From IMG/VR virus record IMGVR_UViG_2917408641_000004: a stretch of DNA of 44,025 nucleotides. One strand, given 5' to 3'. How positions within the stretch are numbered: position 1 is the stretch's first letter; each line of letters starts with the position of its first letter. The stretch comes from a virus. Its lineage: Duplodnaviria > Heunggongvirae > Uroviricota > Caudoviricetes. The position numbers and the translations under genes were made by a program. Under the pieces are notes generated by a model, which searched no databases, had not been told where the DNA came from, and saw only the letters and a program-made list of their open reading frames with translations. This document shows positions 4,224 through 23,594 of this stretch, one piece after another.

Positions 4224-4415
4224 TTAAAGACCTGCCGGGATTTCGATATTATCCAGGTGAATAACTTTATCGACCGGGTAACAGTTACCGGGAATTTTCT
4301 GTTCGGTTGCTGCAGTCATACACTCCTGCATTGTCCTGTGAACACTGACTGCAATATCAACTGGCTCTCCGGAAACAAGAAAAACTGTCAGAACAAGCGC
4401 AAATGCTGAATTCAT
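4224..4415 (-). CDS. Small hypothetical protein with N-terminal signal peptide
   Basis: 63 aa from ATG at 4415 (SD AAGGA 8 nt upstream); hydrophobic N-terminus MNSAFALVLTVFLVSG; ATGA overlap with upstream gene suggests translational coupling. Confidence 0.5.
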   Translation of the reverse strand: MNSAFALVLTVFLVSGEPVDIAVSVHRTMQECMTAATEQKIPGNCYPVDKVIHLDNIEIPAGL

Positions 4416-4600
4416 TGTGCACATCCTTTTGGCATCAGACGTAAACGAGCCAGCATTGAAACAATGCATATTTTATTTAATAGCTCCCGTTCTTGTTTTC
4501 TCTTGTTAATGGCATCTTCAGTAAATACAGGGTTACTGATAGTGACACCAATTTCAAAACAACCTTCAGACGTATTAACGTTTGGTAATAACGTTTTCAT
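4412..4600 (-). CDS. Small hypothetical early protein
   Basis: 62 aa from ATG at 4600 with SD GAGGA 7 nt upstream; stop overlaps start of next gene (ATGA). Confidence 0.5.
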   Translation of the reverse strand: MKTLLPNVNTSEGCFEIGVTISNPVFTEDAINKRKQERELLNKICIVSMLARLRLMPKGCAQ

Positions 4601-5102
4601 TATCGCGTCCTCAACAATGAATTTTGTGATGCAGTGCCTGGTGCCTCCAGGTGACGTTAACCAGTTAACAATTAACGCCGGATACAGAGAATCCACCCAT
4701 AACACTGTTTTTGGTTTTAACTGTTCCGCGTGCGCTTAGCCGCATTCACCGCATCACAAAATTCACTTTAAAAACGGCGGCAGAGCAGTCACGGAGTAAA
4801 ACTGATACCGCCAAACGTCACCAGAAAATTGATAACAGAGGGCGTTGCAGCGGGGTTGTCACTTAAGCGTATGGTCAACCTGACAACTCGGTGTCCTCAA
4901 CGGGGAAGGAATAACCCCGCCATACTTACCGCCGCGCCATTTCGCGGGTTGCCACAACCGGAAGCGCACGGTCGAATTAAATTTAACGACACCGTACAGT
5001 GAGACGAACTTCGCCGTGCGCTTTCGTGTTGTGTGCCTGCTTTTAACCACGTCAGGCGAGGTGGTATCCTTCTTATCCCGAATAACCAAGAAGGAAATCT
5101 AT

Positions 5103-5303
5103 ATGACTAAAGAAGAATTTGTCTCTTATATTTTTGATAAAACGGTTGAAATGTATGCCGCTACTTACGGGTCCTGTAATCCTCTGAATAAACCAGAGGG
5201 GAAAGATGATTTCGACAAAATTTACCGCTTCTTGGAGGACCGCTATATCAAAAGGTTAGAGGACGCAGGGATCAAATCCCCAGTGAAGTCACCATTGTCC
5301 TGA
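5103..5303 (+). CDS. Small hypothetical protein
   Basis: 66 aa from ATG 5103 with SD AAGGAA; transcribed opposite to the flanking early genes. Confidence 0.45.
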   Translation: MTKEEFVSYIFDKTVEMYAATYGSCNPLNKPEGKDDFDKIYRFLEDRYIKRLEDAGIKSPVKSPLS

Positions 5304-5366
5304 GAACTTGCAGGACGTCATGATCGTAACTTCCATCCAAACCGCGACGGCAAATTGCTTCTCGTA

Positions 5367-5636
5367 TTACCGGAAGCAGTTCGCTGGAAATCTCGGTGAT
5401 ATTTCACCTGATAATACGCCTGGCTCAAGTGAGAATATTGGTGAACTTACGCTCTTGGTCTCGACAGTTTCAGAGTCAGTGCCAACATTATAAAGCTCAA
5501 CGAAAGCGGTCTTGATTTTCCGGGCCAGATCTTTTGCTGGCTCGCTTGCAATATCTTTCCCGATTTCTCGCAGCACAGAATGCAATGTATGAGCTGCTGT
5601 TTTCTGTACATCAGACGGTAAATCTTTAAATTCCAT
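5367..5636 (-). CDS. Small hypothetical early protein
   Basis: 89 aa from ATG at 5636 preceded by GAGG; overlaps stop of upstream gene. Confidence 0.45.
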   Translation of the reverse strand: MEFKDLPSDVQKTAAHTLHSVLREIGKDIASEPAKDLARKIKTAFVELYNVGTDSETVETKSVSSPIFSLEPGVLSGEISPRFPANCFR

Positions 5637-5647
5637 CGTCAGCCTCA

Positions 5648-5800
5648 TCAGTCAGTGTTTCTGGCTAACCAGCAACGCGCGCCAGATTCGGTTTTAAACG
5701 TTTTGCTTTTGGTATATGTCATCGCGGTGAACGTACCGTCCTGGTTGGGGAACACGCCACATACCAGAGATTCGCTGTTGCCAAGATCGATAGTATCCAT
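5648..5800 (-). CDS. Small hypothetical early protein
   Basis: 50 aa from ATG at 5800 preceded by GAGG. Confidence 0.4.
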   Translation of the reverse strand: MDTIDLGNSESLVCGVFPNQDGTFTAMTYTKSKTFKTESGARCWLARNTD

Positions 5801-5966
5801 GCTGACCTCATTTCCCCTTAACGCCGGGGTAGCGGAACTGTTTGCTGAGAACACCGTGCGGTGTGTTGATGCAAACAAGATTAGCTATGACTAACATATT
5901 GGTCAAGTGATTTTGTATGTTATGACTAACATAATTAATGTAGTAAAAGATAACTCATTGATGATG

Positions 5967-6374
5967 TTATCTTTTATTTGTCCGCTGACGGGCTTTTAGT
6001 AATTCTTCAAAGAGTTTATTGAAGTTTTTTACTCGAGCTCGCATTTCGGCGAGCTGGGTATCCTGTTCTGATTCTGGCAGTGCATTAAACAGCTCAAGGA
6101 GCTCTAGTTCTTTGGGAGATAAGGCAACTGGCTTCTCAACAGGTGGTGTTGGTTGCTTGTCTTCATCGCCAAATAGAATCCATGTTGGTGAGCATTGCAA
6201 TACTTTGCTGAGGGCAAAAAGGTTCTTCCCTGTAGGTTCACTATCATCCCGTTCCCATTGTGATACAGACACATGGGAGATTTTCAGGGCTTTAGCAAGA
6301 GACCTTTGGGTGTGTTTGAGGTTTTTCCGACGATACCTAATGCGTTCGCCGATAGTTAAATTTTTTGTATCCAT
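5967..6374 (-). CDS. Prophage repressor, HTH XRE family (RacR/CI-like, no S24 peptidase domain)
   Basis: 135 aa; N-terminal helix-turn-helix (QRSLAKALKISHVSVSQWER); divergently arranged with a cro-like gene across an operator-like palindromic intergenic region. Confidence 0.8.
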   Translation of the reverse strand: MDTKNLTIGERIRYRRKNLKHTQRSLAKALKISHVSVSQWERDDSEPTGKNLFALSKVLQCSPTWILFGDEDKQPTPPVEKPVALSPKELELLELFNALPESEQDTQLAEMRARVKNFNKLFEELLKARQRTNKR

Positions 6375-6457
6375 AGTTAGCTAATGCTAAATCGTATTGA
6401 CTATGTTTTTGTTAACATCTATTTTGTTAGTTATAACTAACAATCAAGGTGTTTTAA
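6375..6457. promoter_or_regulatory. Divergent promoter/operator region of the immunity switch
   Basis: 83-bp intergenic region between repressor and cro-like starts; perfect 20-bp palindrome TTGTTAGTTATAACTAACAA at 6424-6443 plus shorter palindromes TTAGCTAA and TGTTAACA; TTGACT -35-like hexamer at 6397. Confidence 0.5.
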
Positions 6458-6688
6458 ATGCTTAAAACTGACGCTCTTTTGTATTTCGGTTCAAAAACAA
6501 AACTTGCACAAGCAGCTGGTATTCGTTTGGCTTCGCTTTATAGCTGGAAAGGGGATTTAGTTCCCGAAGGTCGCGCGATGCGTCTACAGGAGGCATCTGG
6601 CGGGGAGCTTCAGTATGACCCCAAAGTTTATGACGAATATCGTAAGACGAAGCGGGCGGGGCGGTTGAACAATGAAAATCACTCCTGA
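6458..6688 (+). CDS. Cro/YdaS-like HTH regulator
   Basis: 76 aa; SD AAGGTG upstream; HTH-like segment KLAQAAGIRLASLYSW; divergent from repressor as in Rac racR-ydaS. Confidence 0.7.
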   Translation: MLKTDALLYFGSKTKLAQAAGIRLASLYSWKGDLVPEGRAMRLQEASGGELQYDPKVYDEYRKTKRAGRLNNENHS

Positions 6689-7193
6689 ACAGGCTCGTGA
6701 GGCTCTGGATGCCTGGATATGTCGACCAGGAATGACACAGGAGCAGGCGACGATATTAATCACTGAAGCATTCTGGGCTTTGAAAGAGCGCCCGAACATC
6801 GATGTTAAGCGTGTCACAGATGAAGGTGGCGCGGTTGATCAGCGAGCGCTTGGCGTTAATCGAGTGAAGATATTCGAACGCTGGAAGGCTATCGACACCA
6901 GGGATAAGCGTGAAAAGTTCATGGCGCTAGTGCCTGCAATTATGGAGGCTATCCGGATTAATGATTTCAGGTTATATCGTGAAATTAGTGACGGAAAAAG
7001 CATCACGTATATGATCGCCGGGTTAAACAAAGAATATGGCGATGTGGTGGAGTCCGGACTGCTTTTTGCTGATCCTGCCGTAGTGGATCGTGAAACTGAC
7101 GAACTTATAGAAAAAGCAATTGCTTTCAAGCTTGCGTATCGACAGCAATACCAACAAAAAGCTGGATGGAATTATGAGTCTTCTTTTTGCTGA
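6672..7193 (+). CDS. YdaT/CII-like protein
   Basis: 173 aa; start overlaps end of cro-like gene by 17 nt; position and size match the second gene of Rac-type ydaS-ydaT pairs; family assignment by synteny only. Confidence 0.5.
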   Translation: MKITPEQAREALDAWICRPGMTQEQATILITEAFWALKERPNIDVKRVTDEGGAVDQRALGVNRVKIFERWKAIDTRDKREKFMALVPAIMEAIRINDFRLYREISDGKSITYMIAGLNKEYGDVVESGLLFADPAVVDRETDELIEKAIAFKLAYRQQYQQKAGWNYESSFC

Positions 7194-8139
7194 ACGCCCA
7201 CTGGTTATAAACACACAGCTTGCGATGAAGATTGGCTTAAACGAGGCCATTGTGTTGCAGCAGTTGCATTACTGGTTGAGAGATACTAATTCCGGTATGG
7301 AATGTGATGGTGTCCGCTGGATTTATAACACAACGGAACAATGGCTGGAACAGTTCCCATTCTGGTCAGAGTCAACGTTAAAGCGCGCGTTTGCAAGTCT
7401 GAAAACGCTGGGGCTTTTGCGTTGCGAAAAGCTCAATAAATCAAAGCGCGACATGACCAATTTCTACACGATCAACTATGGGTGCGAGCTTTTAGATGGT
7501 GGTAAATTGAGCGTATCCATCGGTTCAAAATGCGCTGCTCCATCAGGTCTAAATGATACGATGGAAGAGGTCAAAATGAAACGCTCCATTGGTTCAAAAC
7601 GACCCAATGTCATCGGGTCAAAATGGCCTGATGATCTTACAGAGAATACAACAGAGATTACTACAGAGAATAAAAACACTTTTCGTCCGGAAGCTTCGCA
7701 ACCGGACCCGCAGACGACTGAACAGGATTTTTTAACCCGGAACTCCGACGCGGTTGTGTTTAGTGCGAAAAAACGCCAGTGGGGTAGCAGGGAGGATTTG
7801 GCGTGTGCGCAGTGGATCTGGGGGCGGATCGTGGGTCTCTACGAACAGGCAGCCAGTGATGATGGCGAGATCATGCGACCAAAAGAGCCTAACTGGACTG
7901 CCTGGGCCAATGACGTGCGCACAATGCGGATGCTGGATGGCAGAAGCCACAGACAAATTTGCGAAATGTTTGGTCGGGTTCAGCGAGATCCATTCTGGGT
8001 AAAAAACATCATGAGCCCGTCAAAGCTCCGCGAAAAATGGGACGAACTGGTCATCCGCCTGGGACGTTCACCTGTACAGCGTTGTGTTAATCATATTTCT
8101 GAACCGGATACAGAAATTCCGCCTGGTTTCAGAGGATAA
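7174..8139 (+). CDS. Phage replication initiator (O-like N-terminus, DnaT-like C-terminus)
   Basis: ATG at 7174 (an alternative TTG start at 7120 exists); iteron repeats lie inside the coding region, encoding repeated IGSK peptides; C-terminus ..VNHISEPDTEIPPGFRG matches the C-terminal signature of primosomal protein DnaT. Confidence 0.7.
   Translation: MSLLFAERPLVINTQLAMKIGLNEAIVLQQLHYWLRDTNSGMECDGVRWIYNTTEQWLEQFPFWSESTLKRAFASLKTLGLLRCEKLNKSKRDMTNFYTINYGCELLDGGKLSVSIGSKCAAPSGLNDTMEEVKMKRSIGSKRPNVIGSKWPDDLTENTTEITTENKNTFRPEASQPDPQTTEQDFLTRNSDAVVFSAKKRQWGSREDLACAQWIWGRIVGLYEQAASDDGEIMRPKEPNWTAWANDVRTMRMLDGRSHRQICEMFGRVQRDPFWVKNIMSPSKLREKWDELVIRLGRSPVQRCVNHISEPDTEIPPGFRG
7517..7625. repeat. 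Replication origin iterons (five approx. 23-bp-spaced repeats) followed by A-rich region
   Basis: Repeats CCATCGGTTCAAAATG (7517), CCATCAGGTCTAAATG (7540), GAGGTCAAAATG (7567), CCATTGGTTCAAAACG (7586), TCATCGGGTCAAAATG (7610); followed by ACAGAGA(A/T)TA triplicate in an A-rich stretch to about 7685. Confidence 0.6.
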
Positions 8140-8602: not shown

Positions 8603-8832
8603 GTACATCGGCTACCATTCTCGACATGTGCTGTGGCAGTCGCATGCTCTGGTTCGATAAGAATGACGAATGGTCGATATTTAGCGATATCAGGAAAGAG
8701 GAACATTCGCTATGTGATGGACGTCACCCGATTATTAATCCCGACATTATCGCTGATTTTCGTGCGCTGCCGTGGTTGTCTGCTTTGCATCAAAAGCAGA
8801 CATTACCAGATTTAGACATCTGTTTCCGATAG
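8600..8832 (+). CDS. Small ORF with SAM-methyltransferase motif I-like segment (possible gene fragment)
   Basis: About 77 aa from GTG 8600 (SD GGAGG upstream); segment [13 protein letters not shown] resembles MTase motif I but the protein is far too short to be a complete methyltransferase. Confidence 0.3.
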
Positions 8833-8864
8833 CCCGTTCTGATGCTACACTTTTTGCTATTTTC

Positions 8865-9551
8865 ATGAACCTCATAAACACATTTATGACTGTTGCTGAT
8901 TTCAAACGCCCCAAATTGGAGCTCCCAAACGGGGCAAAAAAACTATTACTGCACTCTTGCTGTGCTCCATGTTCCGGTGAAGTGATGGAGGCGCTTCAGG
9001 CCTCGGGAATCGACTACACCATCTTTTTCTACAACCCGAACATTCATCCTCAGAAAGAGTATTTAATTCGTAAGGATGAGAATATTCGCTTTGCTAAACA
9101 ACACGGCGTGCCATTTATTGATGCTGATTACGACACAGACAACTGGTTTGAGCGAGCCAAAGGAATGGAATGGGAGCCTGAACGAGGGATCCGTTGTACC
9201 ATGTGTTTTGACATGCGTTTTGAGCGGACTGCACTGTATGCCGCTGAAAATGGTTTCAGTGTGATCAGTAGCTCACTGGGCATTTCACGCTGGAAAAATA
9301 TGCAGCAGGTTAACGACTGTGGACGGCGAGCCGTCGCGCATTATCCGGGCATGGTGTACTGGGATTATAACTGGCGAAAACAGGGCGGCTCTTCCCGCAT
9401 GATTGAAATCAGCAAGCGCGAACAATTCTATCAGCAGGAATATTGTGGCTGCGTGTATTCACTGCGCGATACCAATCTACACCGCAAATCTCAGGGACGC
9501 CCTCTAATCAAAATTGGTCAACTGCACTACGGTAAAGAAGGACAGGAATGA
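8865..9551 (+). CDS. queH: Epoxyqueuosine reductase QueH family protein (DUF208)
   Basis: Cysteine motifs [19 protein letters not shown] and QEYCGCVYS characteristic of QueH; ATG at 8865 chosen because the upstream in-frame extension from 8772 is non-conserved. Confidence 0.75.
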
Positions 9552-9672: not shown

Positions 9673-10163
9673 GAAATTAGAGGAAATCTTGCAGCCATGA
9701 TATGGCTTAAAATAACGTTTGATTATTTTACCTGCTGTTTGTCCCTGGTTTAAAGTCGGTTGTCTGATTTGATTACGCGCAACTGACGCTTACGTATTGA
9801 AGTAACGAGCACGAAGACACATATTTATCAGTGCCTGTATACGTCAAGAGCAGGAGATTTATGTGCTGGTTCTCAAATGCACGCTGGCTATTGTGGCTGT
9901 AATGGCAATTTATTGTCTTGTTATTGTTCTTATGGATCACCTTTCTGATTGATTTCATATTGGCGAGGTAACGGTAGTTAAGTAGAATGGCTGCGGGTGC
10001 TTGAGGCTATCTGCCTCGGGCATGAACACCAACGGCAGATAGAGAAAAGCCCCAGTTAACATTACGCGTCCTGCAAGACGCTTAACATTAATCTGAGGCC
10101 AATTTCATGCTAGACACATGTAGGTTAGCCTCTTACGTGCCGAAAGGCAAGGAGAAGCAGGCT

Positions 10164-10319
10164 ATGAAGCAGCAAAAGGCGATGTTAATCGCCCTGATCG
10201 TCATCTGTTTAACCGTCATAGTGACGGCACTGGTAACGAGGAAAGACCTCTGCGAGGTACGAATCCGAACCGGCCAGACGGAGGTCGCTGTCTTCACAGC
10301 TTACGAACCTGAGGAGTAA
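10164..10319 (+). CDS. hokD: Hok/Gef family type I toxin (HokD/RelF-like)
   Basis: 51-aa product MKQQKAMLIALIVICLTVIVTALVTRKDLCEVRIRTGQTEVAVFTAYEPEE: single TM helix plus conserved Hok C-terminus; SD AAGGAG upstream; 3' hairpins and terminator downstream as in hok mRNAs. Confidence 0.85.
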   Translation: MKQQKAMLIALIVICLTVIVTALVTRKDLCEVRIRTGQTEVAVFTAYEPEE

Positions 10320-10535: not shown

Positions 10536-10772
10536 ATGATGAACATCGAAGAACTGCGTAAAATTTTTTGTGAAGATGGCCTCTATGCTGTGTGCGTTGA
10601 AAATGGAAATCTTGTTAGTCATTACCGCATTATGTGTTTGCGAAAGAATGGGGCTGCGTTAATTAATTTTGTGGATGGTCGAGTGACAGACGGATTTATC
10701 TTGCGCGAAGGTGAGTTTGTCACTTCATTACAGGCACTGAAAGAGATCGGAATAAAAGCAGGCTTTTCGTAA
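10536..10772 (+). CDS. Rem-like small protein, 3' end replaced by IS66-family insertion
   Basis: 78-aa ORF whose last codon and stop are supplied by the IS end; removing the IS and one TSD copy restores an 83-aa ORF ending ..GFSAFAEE, the size I recall for Qin Rem; family call by synteny. Confidence 0.5.
   Translation: MMNIEELRKIFCEDGLYAVCVENGNLVSHYRIMCLRKNGAALINFVDGRVTDGFILREGEFVTSLQALKEIGIKAGFS
10761..10768. repeat. 8-bp target-site duplication of IS66-family element (left copy; right copy 14906-14913)
   Basis: GGCTTTTC directly flanks both imperfect terminal inverted repeats. Confidence 0.8.
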
Positions 10773-11121
10773 CCGGCTCATTTAAACCGTCTGGTCTGTT
10801 TCCTCCGGCTCTACAAAAATAATGTCCATCATTTTTAATGGACACTATCGTATGAAACACCGGACCTGGATCACTGAAGCTTTACGTCTTCACTTTGAAG
10901 AACATTTACCCCGGGTTGTGGCCGGGCGTCGCCTGGGTGTACCAAAATCAACAGTTTGTAGTATGTTCGTGCGCTTTCGGAGAGCTGGCCTTTCGTGGCC
11001 TTTGCCCGCAGGCATGTCGGAGCAGGAACTTGATGCCTGCCTTTACGGACAATTTTCCACGGTACCAGTCGTACGTCCTGAAAGCACCGTTATATCCGAA
11101 GCCCCCGTGGTAAAAAAACGT

Positions 11122-11133
11122 CCCCGGCGGCCC
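11122..11133. repeat. 12-bp target-site duplication of IS4 (left copy; right copy 12560-12571)
   Basis: CCCCGGCGGCCC present immediately outside both IS4 ends. Confidence 0.85.
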
Positions 11134-12559
11134 TAATGCCAGTCAGTTAAGCAACTGACTGGCTCTTTTTCGGGGCTGTGGGGTATTTCCAGGGCCTCTC
11201 CTTTACCACTCTCGGGAAGGCCCTTTCCCTTCTTGTCGGTAATTTCACAAGTTGTCCCATACTTGCAAGATCGCGCATCAGCTCCGGTATACGTCCCGGT
11301 GAAGCGCCCTGCAATGTCATCAGCATTCTCATCACCATTCCGCATGATTCTGAGAAACTCAGTTGATTCGGCCAGTAACCTTTCAGATGTTCTGCCATTT
11401 TAATCATCTGATATCTCACCAGATTATAAGCCAGTAAGACACCCCACAGCTCTTGCTCCACAAGCTCCGGCTTTTTACTTCTCAGCGTCAGCCTGCTCAG
11501 TTGCATCGTCTGTTTTATCTCCCTGTATCCCAGTTCGATTTCCCAGCGATGACTGTACAGATCCGCCATTTCTCCTCCGGGGAAGCGCATGGCGTCCGTC
11601 ATCGACGTCAGCAGATGGCAGACTTTTCCTTTGCGCGTCACGGTCAGCAGGCGGGCTGTCACCTCATTTCCCAGCCCCGGCCACTTTTTTCGTGCCTGCG
11701 GGCTGGTTTTCAGCTTCACCAGATGATCGCCTTTACCCAGTTTTCTGATCTCTTCATATTGCGCTCCCTTTCTGAGAGGGATCATCCAGTGGCGGTGTTC
11801 TCCCGCCTGGCTCCAGGCATTTAACAGTCCCAGTGAGTAATAACCTTTATCCATTAACGTCAGGGTGTTATCGCCGGTTTGTTCTATAAGTTGCTCAGCA
11901 AGCTCATTTTCGCTGTTCTTCATCGTGCCGAAGGCTGCAGCCGTCAGCAGATGGCTGGTCAGTTCCATCTGGCAGACCATTTTGACCTGCGGGTAGAGCG
12001 CCGGGTTCCCGGCATGTGTCTGGCGGGGGAAGGCTGCATCGTTCTCTGGTGTATCCGGTGTGCGCCAGAACACACCATCGATGGCCAGCAGGGTCAGGCC
12101 GCACCAGTGCGGATGCGGCGTGGCGTTATGCCAGAGCTGCGCTGTTTTCGTGAACACGCGGCGGACAGCCTCACTTCCCAGACGCTGGCGGGCCTGAATA
12201 ACGGCACTGGGGGCAACGAAGGGGCGATTGCCCGGCAGCATGATGTCCAGGCGATTCACAATCTGGTGAAGAGGTTCTTTACGCTCAAGCGCCATGCCAA
12301 CAATACACCAGACCATCATTTCGAGGGGAAGACGGCGCTTGCGTAGCGTTACAGTACCTGATTCGGCAAGGCAACGAGAGATGAGTTCGGGGTCGAGGTA
12401 ATCCCCCAGAGAAGTCAGTGGGTTACGCAGAGAATCGTAACGGGATACCAAATCAAGGGCCTGTCCAATGAGCATAAAAAAATCCGGAAACGAGTGAGCG
12501 TTTCCGGATTCTTACACAGCCACTGGATCGGTCAACTGATCCTTAACTGATCGGCATTA
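11134..12559 (-). mobile_element. IS4, complete copy
   Basis: 1426 bp, matching the known IS4 length; terminal inverted repeats TAATGCC(A/G)..TCAGTTAAG; single 442-aa transposase; 12-bp TSD within the expected 11-13 bp range. Confidence 0.9.
11147..12475 (-). CDS. insG: IS4 transposase
   Basis: 442-aa ORF filling the IS4 element; IS4-family DDE transposase. Confidence 0.9.
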
Positions 12560-12571: not shown

Positions 12572-12936
12572 AACTTCCCTTATGAGTTTAAAATCGCCTT
12601 AGTGGAGCAGTCACTGCAGCCCGGAGCCTGTGTGGCGCAGATCGCCCGGGAAAACGGAATCAACGATAACCTGCTCTTCAACTGGCGCCATCAATACCGG
12701 AAAGGTGGCCTGCTGCCTTCCGGAAAAAATATGCCGGCACTGCTTCCCGTGACGTTAACGCCGGAGCCGGATAATAAAATCCCGGCCCCCGCACAGGAAC
12801 CAGAGCAGATAAATACACCGTCCGACAGTCTGTGTTGTGAGCTGGTTCTGCCGGCCGGAACTCTCAGGCTTAAAGGTAAACTGACGCCGGCGTTATTACA
12901 GACACTTATCCGCGAAATAAAAGGGAGCAGCCACTG

Positions 12937-13284
12937 ATGATATCTCTCCCTGCCGGTTCGCGTATCTGGCTGGTTGCAGGTATCACCGATATGCGAAATG
13001 GCTTTAACGGCCTGGCATCAAAAGTTCAGAACGTCCTGAAGGATGACCCGTTCTCCGGACACCTGTTCATCTTCCGCGGACGCCGGGGTGACCAGATAAA
13101 AGTGTTGTGGGCTGACAGTGACGGACTGTGCCTCTTCACCAAACGCCTGGAGCGGGGCCGCTTCGTCTGGCCAGTCACCCGTGACGGCAAGGTGCACCTT
13201 ACTCCGGCTCAGTTATCCATGCTTCCTGAAGGTATCAACTGGAAGCACCCGAAACGAACGGAACGCGCTGGAATCCGCATATAA
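12937..13284 (+). CDS. tnpB: IS66-family TnpB (Orf2)
   Basis: 115 aa; start overlaps tnpA stop (ATGA); typical IS66 Orf2 sequence (..IWLVAGITDMRNGFNGLA..). Confidence 0.85.
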   Translation: MISLPAGSRIWLVAGITDMRNGFNGLASKVQNVLKDDPFSGHLFIFRGRRGDQIKVLWADSDGLCLFTKRLERGRFVWPVTRDGKVHLTPAQLSMLPEGINWKHPKRTERAGIRI

Positions 13285-13303
13285 CCCGTTGTAAAGTGAG
13301 GAT

Positions 13304-14875
13304 ATGGACACCTCACTTGCTCATGAGAACGCCCGCCTGCGGGCACTGTTGCAGACGCAACAGGACACCATCCGCCAGATGGCTGAATACAACCGCCTGC
13401 TCTCACAGCGGGTGGCGGCTTATGCTTCCGAAATCAACCGGCTGAAGGCGCTGGTTGCGAAACTGCAACGTATGCAGTTCGGTAAAAGCTCAGAAAAACT
13501 TCGTGCAAAAACCGAACGGCAGATACAGGAAGCTCAGGAGCGAATCAGCGCACTTCAGGAAGAAATGGCGGAAACGCTGGGTGAGCAATATGACCCGGTA
13601 CTGCCATCCGCCCTGCGCCAGTCTTCAGCCCGTAAACCGTTACCGGCCTCACTTCCCCGTGAAACCCGGGTTATCCGGCCGGAAGAGGAATGCTGTCCTG
13701 CCTGTGGTGGTGAACTCAGTTCTCTGGGATGTGATGTGTCAGAGCAACTGGAGCTTATCAGCAGCGCCTTTAAGGTTATCGAAACACAACGTCCGAAACT
13801 GGCCTGTTGCCGGTGCGACCATATCGTGCAGGCACCAGTACCTTCAAAACCCATTGCACGCAGTTATGCCGGAGCGGGGCTTCTGGCCCATGTTGTCACC
13901 GGGAAATATGCAGACCATCTGCCGTTATACCGCCAGTCAGAAATATACCGTCGTCAGGGAGTGGAGCTGAGCCGTGCCACACTGGGGCGCTGGACCGGTG
14001 CCGTTGCTGAACTGCTGGAGCCGCTGTATGACGTCCTGCGCCAGTATGTGCTGATGCCCGGTAAAGTCCATGCCGATGATATCCCCGTCCCGGTCCAGGA
14101 GCCGGGCAGCGGTAAAACCCGGACAGCCCGGCTGTGGGTCTACGTCCGTGATGACCGCAACGCCGGTTCACAGATGCCCCCGGCGGTCTGGTTCGCGTAC
14201 AGTCCGGACCGGAAAGGTATCCATCCACAAAATCACCTGGCCGGTTACAGCGGTGTGCTTCAGGCCGATGCTTACGGTGGTTACCGGGCGTTATACGAAT
14301 CCGGCAGAATAACGGAAGCCGCGTGTATGGCTCATGCCCGGAGAAAAATCCACGATGTGCATGCAAGAGCGCCCACCGACATCACCACGGAAGCCCTGCA
14401 GCGTATCGGTGAACTGTATGCTATCGAGGCAGAGGTCCGGGGCTGTTCAGCAGAACAGCGTCTGGCGGCAAGAAAAGCCAGAGCCGCGCCACTGATGCAG
14501 TCACTGTATGACTGGATACAGCAACAGATGAAAACACTGTCGCGTCACTCAGATACGGCAAAAGCGTTCGCATACCTGCTGAAACAGTGGGATGCACTGA
14601 ACGTGTACTGCAGTAATGGCTGGGTGGAAATCGACAACAACATCGCAGAGAACGCCTTACGGGGAGTGGCCGTAGGCCGGAAAAACTGGATGTTCGCGGG
14701 TTCCGACAGCGGTGGTGAACATGCGGCGGTGTTGTACTCGCTGATCGGCACATGCCGTCTGAACAATGTGGAGCCAGAAAAGTGGCTGCGTTACGTCATT
14801 GAACATATCCAGGACTGGCCGGCAAACCGGGTACGCGATCTGTTGCCCTGGAAAGTTGATCTGAGCTCTCAGTAA
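13304..14875 (+). CDS. tnpC: IS66-family transposase TnpC
   Basis: 523 aa; N-terminal coiled-coil/leucine zipper, CxxC..CxxC zinc motif (CPACGG..CCRCDH) and DDE-type C-terminal region characteristic of IS66 transposases. Confidence 0.85.
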
Positions 14876-19422: not shown

Positions 19423-19722
19423 AAAAATTCCTTAATACTGATAACTTGGCGCACTATACACACGTTCCTGAAGAAAGCTATAGTTTTTTGATGGGGTTGA
19501 AGATGGCTGGATGTCTAAAATAAACATTGCTTCATATGTTCAACTATGCGTTAATGATTGCGTCGGTTTGAAGAACAGACGATATACGAAGTAGTTTACT
19601 AAAGCAGTTCTCATTTCAGGTGTTATTCACTTATTCCTTCTTTGAGTCTCTCCAATTAAGTACGAAGTCGTTTCTGTTATACAAGCCATTTATGCCGAAA
19701 GGCTCAAGTTAAGGAATGTAGA

Positions 19723-19938
19723 ATGTCAAATAAAATGACTGGTTTAGTAAAATGGTTTAACGCTGATAAAGGTTTTGGCTTTATTTCTCCTGTTGATGGT
19801 AGTAAAGATGTGTTTGTGCATTTTTCTGCGATTCAGAATGATAATTTTCGAACCTTATTTGAAGGTCAAAAGGTTACCTTCTCTGTAGAGAGTGGTGCTA
19901 AAGGTCCTGCAGCAGCAAATGTCATAATTACTGATTAA
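19723..19938 (+). CDS. cspB: Cold-shock protein CspB
   Basis: 71-aa product [38 protein letters not shown]..; CspA-family RNP motifs. Confidence 0.8.
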
Positions 19939-20221
19939 AATTAATAGTTTGTCTGTATACGATAACGAAGAAGGCTGATGCCTGAGTGGAGATACAGACA
20001 GAGTGGTGAATATTGGATCTCTTTAATAAATAGTAAGGAGATCCAATACATGAAACAATGACCAGCATATTTGGCAATAACTTAATCAGGAAAAGTATGC
20101 TAACCATTGTGGTGAAGTGCAGGTTTGCTGCATGAATAGTTTTACAGCAGAAGCTAACTGCTAGCATAGCAAAACAAAGTGCGTAAGTGGATGACTCCCA
20201 CAAAAAGCACCACAATATTAA

Positions 20222-22811: not shown

Positions 22812-23174
22812 ATTAATATTAAATCGGATTATTTTTAGCGCTGAATGTGAAATTTAAATAAAAAGGACTCTTCCATGAGTCAAAATCCTTGAAATCTTAA
22901 GGGTAAGATAAAAGGTCATTAGACAGAATGACACGTTTTATTAATAAATAAAGCTATTGTTTCATTCGTGTGTTTTTCTTTACAAAAGTAATCCTTGCTA
23001 TGGTTGGTTAATCATGCGTTAATGGTGTTCTGGTTTGTTACAAAATTATCTGAAGCAGTCATTGTTATAATTTTATTATTTGTACCTCTTGAGATTTCCT
23101 TGTTGGTTTTTCTCTCTGATATTTTTTTTCGGACCATTCTGCCCAAGGGCTAACTTCTTCAAAAGGTAATAATG

Positions 23175-23387
23175 ATGTCTAACAAAATGACTGGTTTAGT
23201 GAAATGGTTTAACCCTGAAAAAGGTTTTGGTTTCATCACGCCGAAAGATGGTAGCAAAGATGTGTTTGTCCATTTCTCAGCTATTCAGAGCAACGATTTC
23301 AAAACGTTAACTGAGAATCAGGAAGTCGAATTTGGTATTGAGAACGGACCTAAAGGCCCCGCGGCTGTTCATGTTGTGGCACTTTGA
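23175..23387 (+). CDS. cspI: Cold-shock protein CspI
   Basis: 70-aa product [70 protein letters not shown]. Confidence 0.8.
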
Positions 23388-23594
23388 GGTAGAAAATATT
23401 ACAAACCATATTCACTTTAGATGCCCGTGTTGCCATGGTTCTCAGTATAGAACATCATCTTTTGATGTTTCTGACAGGAATCCTTTCGGGGCAAAATGTA
23501 TCTTTTGTAAATCAATGATGATTACATTTGATAATATTTCACAATACTTAAATGTTAGCCGTCTGTCGTTAGATTTAAGAAAGTGAAAATGAAG

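Follow-up and report, generated by a model that had tools for sequence, protein, structure and literature searches.

A DicA/DicC-type immunity switch beside a full-length YdaT-family gene in a Qin-like prophage

Introduction

The immunity switch of the Qin (Kim) prophage of Escherichia coli K-12 is built around the repressor DicA and its partner DicC. In K-12, DicA binds the operator Oc (TTGTTAGTCATAACTAACAA) in vivo, a single A-to-C change abolishes this binding, and from Oc the repressor turns dicC down and its own gene up (Yun et al. 2012, PMC3441716). Operators are also found at dicBp, the promoter of the dicB operon, which DicA represses. DicA has no cleavage bond and forms a bistable switch with DicC; the antirepressor Rem, which was found by iterated searches from GfoA and FsoA, de-represses dicBp 165-fold, and the signal controlling rem is unknown in the literature (Ragunathan et al. 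2023, bioRxiv 10.1101/2023.04.14.536235, PMC10448788). Here we analyze a locus of this kind at positions 5967–7193 of a 44,025-nt stretch of viral DNA (IMG/VR record IMGVR_UViG_2917408641_000004), the whole of which we call the window.

Other lambdoid elements use a similar arrangement with different parts. YdaT of the prophages CP-933P and Rac is a tetrameric, POU-like helix-turn-helix (HTH) protein that binds TTGATT-N6-AATCAA at the ydaS/ydaT junction; the footprinted box of Rac reads ATGATT-CATGAA-AATCAA, and Rac YdaT also binds the intergenic region between repressor and cro. In both prophages YdaT activates a reverse promoter, which raises repressor expression, and it is not a toxin–antitoxin partner. 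The repressors GfoR and GfhR of Gifsy-1 and Gifsy-3 are, according to Lemire et al. (2011) as cited in later work, short proteins that have no cleavage site and are inactivated by small, LexA-controlled antirepressors.

An earlier note, made from the sequence alone, had described the locus as a Rac-type switch in which a repressor lacking a peptidase faces a pair of genes resembling ydaS and ydaT. All of the elements that it named are present: the open reading frames (ORFs), the HTH repressor lacking a peptidase and the palindrome. We conclude, with a probability of roughly 0.93, that they form the immunity (lysis–lysogeny) switch of a Qin/mEp460-like lambdoid prophage of E. coli. The DicA/DicC switch, its operator, the absence of SOS cleavage and the Rem antirepressor are already published, and the locus is an ordinary one rather than new.

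Identity of the repressor and of the Cro analogue

The repressor gene dicA (5967–6374, minus strand, 135 aa) and dicC (6458–6688, plus strand, 76 aa) are transcribed divergently from an 83-bp spacer. A third ORF, of the YdaT family (6672–7193, plus strand, 173 aa), overlaps dicC by 17 nt. The divergent lambdoid layout proposed earlier is thus borne out, with DicA facing a Cro analogue and a YdaT-family gene. The repressor is identical to K-12 DicA at 133 of 135 residues; the two substitutions are E2D and G43D, of which the latter sits just after the recognition helix. It scores 235.6 bits against the NCBIfam DicA model (NF007257, cut-off 101) over residues 4–135. The 76-aa protein matches K-12 DicC at every position (76/76) and scores 159.5 bits against the NCBIfam DicC model (NF007282, cut-off 130). 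It also matches Pfam P22_Cro (44.1 bits, cut-off 30.2) and the structure of P22 Cro (1rzs, E=6.8e-6). By these sequence comparisons it is DicC, the Cro analogue. We assign the module to the dic type because of the near-identity of both proteins to those of K-12, the NCBIfam scores, an operator that agrees with K-12 Oc at 19 of 20 positions, and the Qin gene order, the last two of which are described below.

A Rac-type module, composed of homologues of RacR, YdaS and YdaT, would have the same gene order and functional logic, and the third gene does belong to the YdaT family; the literature, moreover, pairs DicC with YdaS as its counterpart and describes YdfX as a YdaT homologue from Qin. Direct comparison speaks otherwise. 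BLASTP detected no similarity between the repressor and RacR (the best alignment covers 2 residues, E=35) and gave no alignment between DicC and Rac YdaS. Against Pfam YdaS_toxin (PF15943), DicC reaches 18.3 bits, under the cut-off of 30, while it clears that of P22_Cro. With both proteins near-identical to DicA and DicC, the Rac-type reading is refuted, as far as protein families go, for RacR and YdaS, and as an account of the locus it is very improbable. Of the alignments to RacR, YdaS and YdaT that the earlier note had proposed, the first two fail and the third finds a distant family member; its Rac-type label falls, and the resemblance of the downstream pair to ydaS–ydaT holds for the third gene and not for the Cro-like one.

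DicA consists of an HTH N-terminal domain like that of P22 C2 and a short helical C-terminal part. Pfam HTH_3 matches residues 12–66 (58 bits), and the N-terminal domain of P22 C2 matches residues 7–71 (E=8e-20), the HTH domain being 59% identical. This likeness is the argument for RecA-stimulated autocleavage of the repressor, as in lambda CI or P22 C2. DicA, however, has 135 residues where C2 has 216; the stretch of about 65 residues after its HTH domain is too short for an S24 domain. No Pfam match to Peptidase_S24 was found in the repressor at E≤0.01, and none of its dipeptides is Ala-Gly or Cys-Gly, the possible cleavage bonds, in agreement with the literature. The sole match in the window to the LexA box CTGT-N8-ACAG lies inside an IS66 transposase gene, at chance level, and no such box occurs near or upstream of rem. 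Because DicA lacks a peptidase, RecA-stimulated self-cleavage is not expected, as had been predicted from the absence of an S24 domain, and we regard an autocleaving repressor here as next to impossible.

When the window is compared with the heteroimmune phage mEp460, DicC is identical over its C-terminal 40 residues and differs in its N-terminal half, and the entire YdaT-family gene is identical. This pattern places a recombination boundary of the immunity module inside dicC.

Operators and promoters

The operator Oc, the analogue of OR1, is a perfect 20-bp palindrome, TTGTTAGTTATAACTAACAA, at 6424–6443. It is the only site in the 44-kb window that matches this sequence at three or fewer mismatches (0.01 expected) and the only perfect 20-bp palindrome there; 9 of 200 composition-preserving block shuffles yielded one. 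It differs from K-12 Oc at a single central base, and this difference makes the palindrome of the window perfect. Across alleles the outer half-sites TTGTTAG/CTAACAA are invariant and the central bases vary. Two degenerate relatives, probably weaker operators, lie at 25-bp steps from it within the dicA–dicC intergenic region: an Om-like site at 6399–6418, 25 bp from Oc, and an Oa-like site at 6374–6393, which abuts the dicA start codon and has the core TTAGC-TAAT-GCTAA (12/20 to Oc). The perfect intergenic palindrome that had been read from the sequence is real.

A consensus scan predicts the dicC promoter, the analogue of PR, at 6397–6425 on the plus strand (TTGACT, 17 nt, TATTTT), in agreement with the promoter drawn for K-12 (Yun et al. 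2012, PMC3441716). Oc overlaps its −10 element and the predicted start. Two further Oc-like sites are found downstream of the repressor gene, past its 3' end. Both read on the minus strand: ATGTTAGTCATAACATACAA (5932–5913) matches Oc at 16 of 20 positions and ATGTTAGTCATAGCTAATCT (5897–5878) at 14 of 20. Together they delimit the promoter region of the dicB operon, the PL analogue (5878–5932, minus strand). Its hexamers would be TTGACC (5906–5901) and TAATCT (5883–5878), separated by 17 nt, as judged from the minus-strand sequence; in this orientation one Oc-like site covers the spacer and the −10 element and the other lies just upstream of the −35 element.

The half-site TAACTAACA shows no significant enrichment across the window (9 found, 6.55 expected). 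Since the half-site alone is not enriched, what makes the operators significant is the full palindrome, together with where it lies and its identity to a published operator. Isolated half-sites at 10613 and 17309 are not claimed as operators, the half-site count not being significant. At 10609–10619, within the rem coding sequence, 11 nt repeat the left half of K-12 Oc exactly (TTGTTAGTCAT); about 0.02 matches of this type are expected in 88 kb (both strands). The copy could be a chance occurrence or a weak DicA half-site in the gene of its own antirepressor.

In mEp460 a different palindrome, TTGAGAAAACTCAA, takes the corresponding place in OR as well as in OL, and the repressor is 58% identical to that of the window; the operators therefore covary with repressor specificity. 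The E2D/G43D allele of DicA and the changes of 1–3 bases, relative to K-12, in Oc and the PL-side operator recur together in E. coli strain STEC299. This pairing may reflect co-variation, or else drift.

A perfect 11-bp inverted repeat (TAAAAGATAAC / GTTATCTTTTA, with an 11-nt loop) at 5944–5976 spans the dicA stop codon and is kept in K-12. It lies between dicA and the promoter of the dicB operon, no run of T follows it on the dicA strand, and it may form a hairpin at a transcript end.

The YdaT-family gene

The 173-aa protein is the full-length form of K-12 YdfX, a 96-aa remnant to which it is identical at 89 of 93 residues. It matches PHROG 163, 'CII-like transcriptional activator', at 1e-40 and scores just above the cut-off of Pfam YdaT_toxin (PF06254; 25.6 bits, cut-off 21). 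Comparisons of the single sequence were weak (a motif of 29 aa in Rac YdaT; E of about 0.04 for YdaT entries in the PDB), so we built a family alignment. Its profile aligns with Rac YdaT at 99.1% probability (hhalign, E=1.3e-18) and finds the PDB entries 8bt1, which is YdaT of CP-933P (E=1.3e-19), and 3c4r (E=9.3e-19). Homologues of the 173-aa protein number 60 cluster representatives at E≤0.001 among 1.84 billion, which makes it part of a distinct, small YdaT subfamily.

An AlphaFold2 model of the protein (pLDDT 82.9) has helices at residues 5–16 and 23–35, a loop at 36–56, and further helices at 57–73, 77–97, 99–106, 111–130 and 135–163. This corresponds to the YdaT plan of an all-alpha, POU-like HTH protein with a long loop between helices α2 and α3 and a long C-terminal helix. 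The three best Foldseek matches in the PDB are to 8bt1 and 3c4r (probability 1.00, target-normalised TM 0.53–0.61); the E-values are modest (7e-3) because the orientation of the helices differs. In helix α3, the DNA-contacting R57 and the fold-keeping W58 of Rac YdaT have their equivalents in Arg70 and Trp71, which are nearly invariant in the family alignment; the position of the DNA-contacting His56 is taken by Glu69. The protein is a genuine but distant member of the YdaT family, and on this gene the earlier note was right.

The databases call such proteins toxins: Pfam and PGAP use the names 'YdaS_toxin' and 'toxin YdaT family protein', and over-expression of Rac YdaT has been reported as lethal. 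From this one might take dicC and the YdaT-family gene for a toxin–antitoxin module that is poisonous when de-repressed. The experiments in CP-933P argue against it, since YdaS was shown there to be an analogue of Cro and YdaT one of CII, with no toxin–antitoxin relation between them and no toxicity of YdaT seen. YdaT, furthermore, is a DNA-binding protein whose tetrameric POU-like HTH fold is the one that fits the window model best; DicC is a protein of the P22 Cro type; and the filamentation that follows de-repression of the dic system is due to DicB and DicF. A toxin–antitoxin pair is accordingly a highly unlikely reading, and the debate between toxin–antitoxin and Cro/CII that had been noted for ydaS–ydaT has been settled by experiment, in CP-933P and Rac, in favor of Cro/CII. 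The expectation that the downstream pair would be toxic on de-repression fails too: according to the literature, growth inhibition comes from DicF and DicB, which lie on the other side of dicA.

By homology and position, a CII-like role for the 173-aa protein is somewhat likely. A candidate binding site, the 18-mer TTGAAC-AATGAA-AATCAC at 6665–6682, lies over the start codon of the YdaT-family gene. It agrees with TTGATT-N6-AATCAA at 9 of 12 positions and has the same register as the Rac box; sites that agree equally well number 19 in the 44 kb, and the right half of this one is partly forced by conserved Met-Lys-Ile codons. Two distant homologous loci, L007 and L008, have inverted repeats in the same register. 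Judging from these sequences, a box that overlaps the start codon seems to be conserved across the family (the window, L007, L008 and Rac). If true, the box would couple binding of the YdaT-family protein to control of its own translation or transcription.

On this basis we tentatively propose, at slightly less than even odds, that the 173-aa protein is the CII-type establishment factor of DicA/DicC-type phages, that it recognizes a different box (it has Glu in place of His), possibly TTGAAC-N6-AATCAC, and that it activates leftward transcription of dicA. An analogue of PRE near the candidate box is not claimed: no convincing leftward promoter was found, as inspection by eye gave no convincing −10 element for a sigma-70-like promoter beside the box and a scan of 5600–7300 gave no minus-strand site.

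Two other sequence features were noticed. Overlapping Oc, at 6430–6447, GTTATA-ACTAAC-AATCAA is another sequence that agrees with the YdaT-box consensus at 9 of 12 positions. Inverted repeats with arms of 7–8 nt occur at +31 to +38 within four divergent YdaT-family genes (6709–6733 in the window, 2538–2564 in L007, 2532–2557 in L008 and 4722–4747 in L005); their sequences differ, and the observation is post hoc.

Rem and the inducibility of the prophage

The earlier note held that induction would need a mechanism other than cleavage of the repressor. Such a mechanism is the published one of the Rem antirepressor, and rem, the gene for the antirepressor of DicA, is present 3.8 kb to the right of the switch (10536–10772, plus strand). 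It encodes 78 aa in place of the 83 in K-12. Compared with residues 1–78 of K-12 Rem, 77 of 78 are identical; the DNA diverges after codon 78, where the ORF ends, the last five codons having been replaced at the insertion of an IS21/IS100-like element. In STEC299 the same truncation stands next to an intact IS100, is annotated 'missing C-terminus' and is called a pseudogene by PGAP. In the window the insertion sequences (IS) form a nested cluster at about 10.8–15.0 kb, between rem and ydfU–Q, that comprises an IS21/IS100-like istA fragment (10822–11136), an IS4 transposase gene (11147–12475, minus strand) and an IS66 unit (12602–14875).

Rem is encoded by 15 phage records. Those that could be cross-checked against the listed DicA matches (PhiR42_1, mEp460_ev081, PPompW and Stx2a-converting phages) all have a near-full-length repressor of the DicA family; HannyBb and the 'Escherichia phage Rac' record also encode Rem and stand outside the listed DicA matches. 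We compared the conservation of DicA half by half between heteroimmune phages that have the same Rem; identity is 61% in the C-terminal half and 53% in the HTH half, too small a difference to place the contact surface for Rem in either.

The state of rem and the IS cluster bears on a different reading, in which the switch still regulates but this copy of the prophage is neither Rem-inducible nor lytic, having become a domesticated regulator of cell division and phage exclusion like K-12 Qin. It fits the loss of five codons from rem, the pseudogene call for the same allele in STEC299 and the IS21/IS100 fragment, IS4 and IS66 that fill about 10.8–15.0 kb. Set against this, only 5 of the 83 residues of Rem are gone; judged by the length of their ORFs and by PHROG matches, all the other modules (integrase, exonuclease, O-like gene, Q, lysis, terminase, head, tail and J) look intact; and late transcription that depends on Q does not obviously rely on read-through across the IS elements. 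We consider domestication unlikely, with an appreciable chance nonetheless, and keep to the reading of the locus as the immunity switch of a Qin/mEp460-like prophage.

The dicBF operon and the prophage context

To the left of dicA, the first gene of the leftward operon is ydfA (5648–5800, minus strand; Pfam DUF1391, 92.3 bits), which K-12 YdfA matches by tblastn at 88% over 49 aa. It is followed by the DicF small RNA, which is antisense to ftsZ (4775–4826, minus strand; Rfam RF00039, full length, 72.5 bits against a gathering score of 48), and by the gene for the cell-division inhibitor DicB (4412–4600, minus strand), which is identical to that of K-12 at 62 of 62 residues. With ydfA, DicF and dicB in this order and Oc-like sites at the promoter, the operon would by analogy with K-12 be repressed by DicA. 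Farther left are ydfD and then an 823-aa exonuclease, an excisionase and an integrase. The K-12 ydfB/ydfC segment is replaced at 5000–5650 by other small ORFs, among them one at 5367–5648 (minus strand; PHROG 33007, function unknown); tblastn with K-12 YdfB and YdfC gave no match in the window.

To the right, the next gene of the rightward operon encodes a lambda O-like replication initiator (7174–8139, plus strand; PHROG 391, 4e-90); the E. coli locus that matches the window has here a gene of 966 nt with the annotation 'phage replication protein O'. Beyond it come a DUF977/Ren-like gene, QueH, hok/sok, rem and the IS cluster, and then ydfU, Q and the lysis, terminase, head and tail genes up to J. 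This is the order of Qin (ydfD-dicB-DicF-...-ydfA-dicA / dicC-ydfX...hokD-rem-ydfU-Q), and the window is a nearly complete prophage with a Qin-like gene order. Its cargo, too, is of the kind usual in Qin-like prophages: cold-shock genes with two cspA-type thermoregulator leaders (19562–20001 and 23017–23433), a hok/sok module (9995–10319) whose HokD is identical to that of K-12 at 51 of 51 residues, and a gene for the epoxyqueuosine reductase QueH (8772–9551).

Of 5426 complete E. coli genomes, at least 850 contain the 841-bp switch at a coverage of ≥80%, under the annotations dicA, dicC and 'toxin YdaT family protein'. The closest allele, in STEC299, is 99.8% identical and has the same substitutions in DicA.

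Proposed mechanism

The experimental basis for the working of this switch is that of the near-identical K-12 proteins (99–100%), for which DicA was found to bind Oc, to repress dicC and dicBp and to activate its own gene, the bistability to depend on DicC, and Rem to lift repression. How the weaker operators act, which hexamers make up the promoters, how and where the YdaT-family protein would act like CII, and whether a Rem shorter by five residues is active are matters of inference.

DicA, the analogue of CI and C2, would bind Oc in the dicA–dicC intergenic region. From there it would shut the rightward promoter, and with it dicC, the YdaT-family gene, the O-like replication gene and those that follow, and would stimulate its own leftward transcription. 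It would also repress the PL-like leftward promoter just downstream of dicA, which serves ydfA, DicF and dicB. DicC, the Cro analogue, would make the switch bistable together with DicA. Having no autopeptidase, DicA would not be cleaved in the SOS response and would be inactivated by the small antirepressor Rem instead. The YdaT-family protein, the putative analogue of CII, most likely works as a tetrameric activator of the HTH type, bound close to the start codon of its own gene, and it may boost leftward transcription of dicA while lysogeny is established.

Discussion

No observation contradicts the identification of the locus; some call for caution over how its parts work. In K-12, Om and Oa alone did not bind DicA (Yun et al. 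2012, PMC3441716). The window has its own allele of DicA (E2D, G43D), and its Oc and OL sites differ from those of K-12 at 1–3 bases. His56, an essential DNA-contacting residue of Rac YdaT, corresponds to Glu69 in the 173-aa protein, and the candidate YdaT box at 6665–6682 is poorly symmetric (3/6). Finally, induction that depends on Rem may be impaired by the clipped rem gene and the pile-up of IS elements.

The module belongs under the Qin/dic type and not the Rac type, and its toxic output is dicBF. The label 'toxin YdaT' is a misnomer for what is probably a CII-like regulator. This copy keeps a full-length YdaT-family gene beside DicC in a nearly complete prophage. For this reason the window, along with its intact relatives PhiR42_1 and mEp460, would be a convenient template for studying the establishment of lysogeny in DicA-type phages, for which K-12 Qin cannot serve.

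Among known systems, racR-ydaS-ydaT of Rac and paaR2-ydaS-ydaT of CP-933P share with the window a short, non-cleavable repressor, a Cro analogue opposite it, a YdaT-family protein in the place of CII and then the replication genes. Conserved as well are the fold of YdaT and, in the recognition helix, an Arg-Trp pair. They differ in that their repressor and Cro analogue come from other families, and their YdaT is about 20–30% identical, has 140 aa rather than 173, and has His56 where the window has Glu. The C2/Cro pair of P22 resembles the switch in the HTH domain of DicA, 59% identical to the N-terminal domain of C2, and in the match of DicC to P22 Cro. Unlike C2, DicA lacks the C-terminal S24 peptidase/dimerisation domain, and the operator sequence differs. 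The Gifsy type, likened here from literature descriptions, also has a short repressor that is inactivated by an antirepressor; it differs in its LexA control, no LexA box having been seen at rem.

The closest phages are functional and temperate. mEp460_ev081 and PhiR42_1 share 82–86% of the 4.4-kb early region at 97–98% identity, and HannyBb shares 71%; all three have rem and all three lack the IS cluster. PhiR42_1 has the same immunity, with a DicA that is 98.5% identical. mEp460 is heteroimmune, with a repressor that is 58% identical, a Cro that is 70% identical and different operators.

Close in its parts, too, is Qin of K-12. It differs in that its ydfX is a 96-aa remnant, in place of which the window has the 173-aa gene, followed by O-like, DUF977/Ren-like and QueH genes, all intact, and by a complete set of morphogenesis genes. 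The window also has a perfect palindrome at Oc, the E2D and G43D substitutions in DicA, other ORFs in place of ydfB and ydfC, and a rem gene clipped by an IS element. The two agree in DicA (133/135), DicC (76/76), DicB (62/62), Rem (77/78), DicF, Oc (19/20) and the order of their genes.

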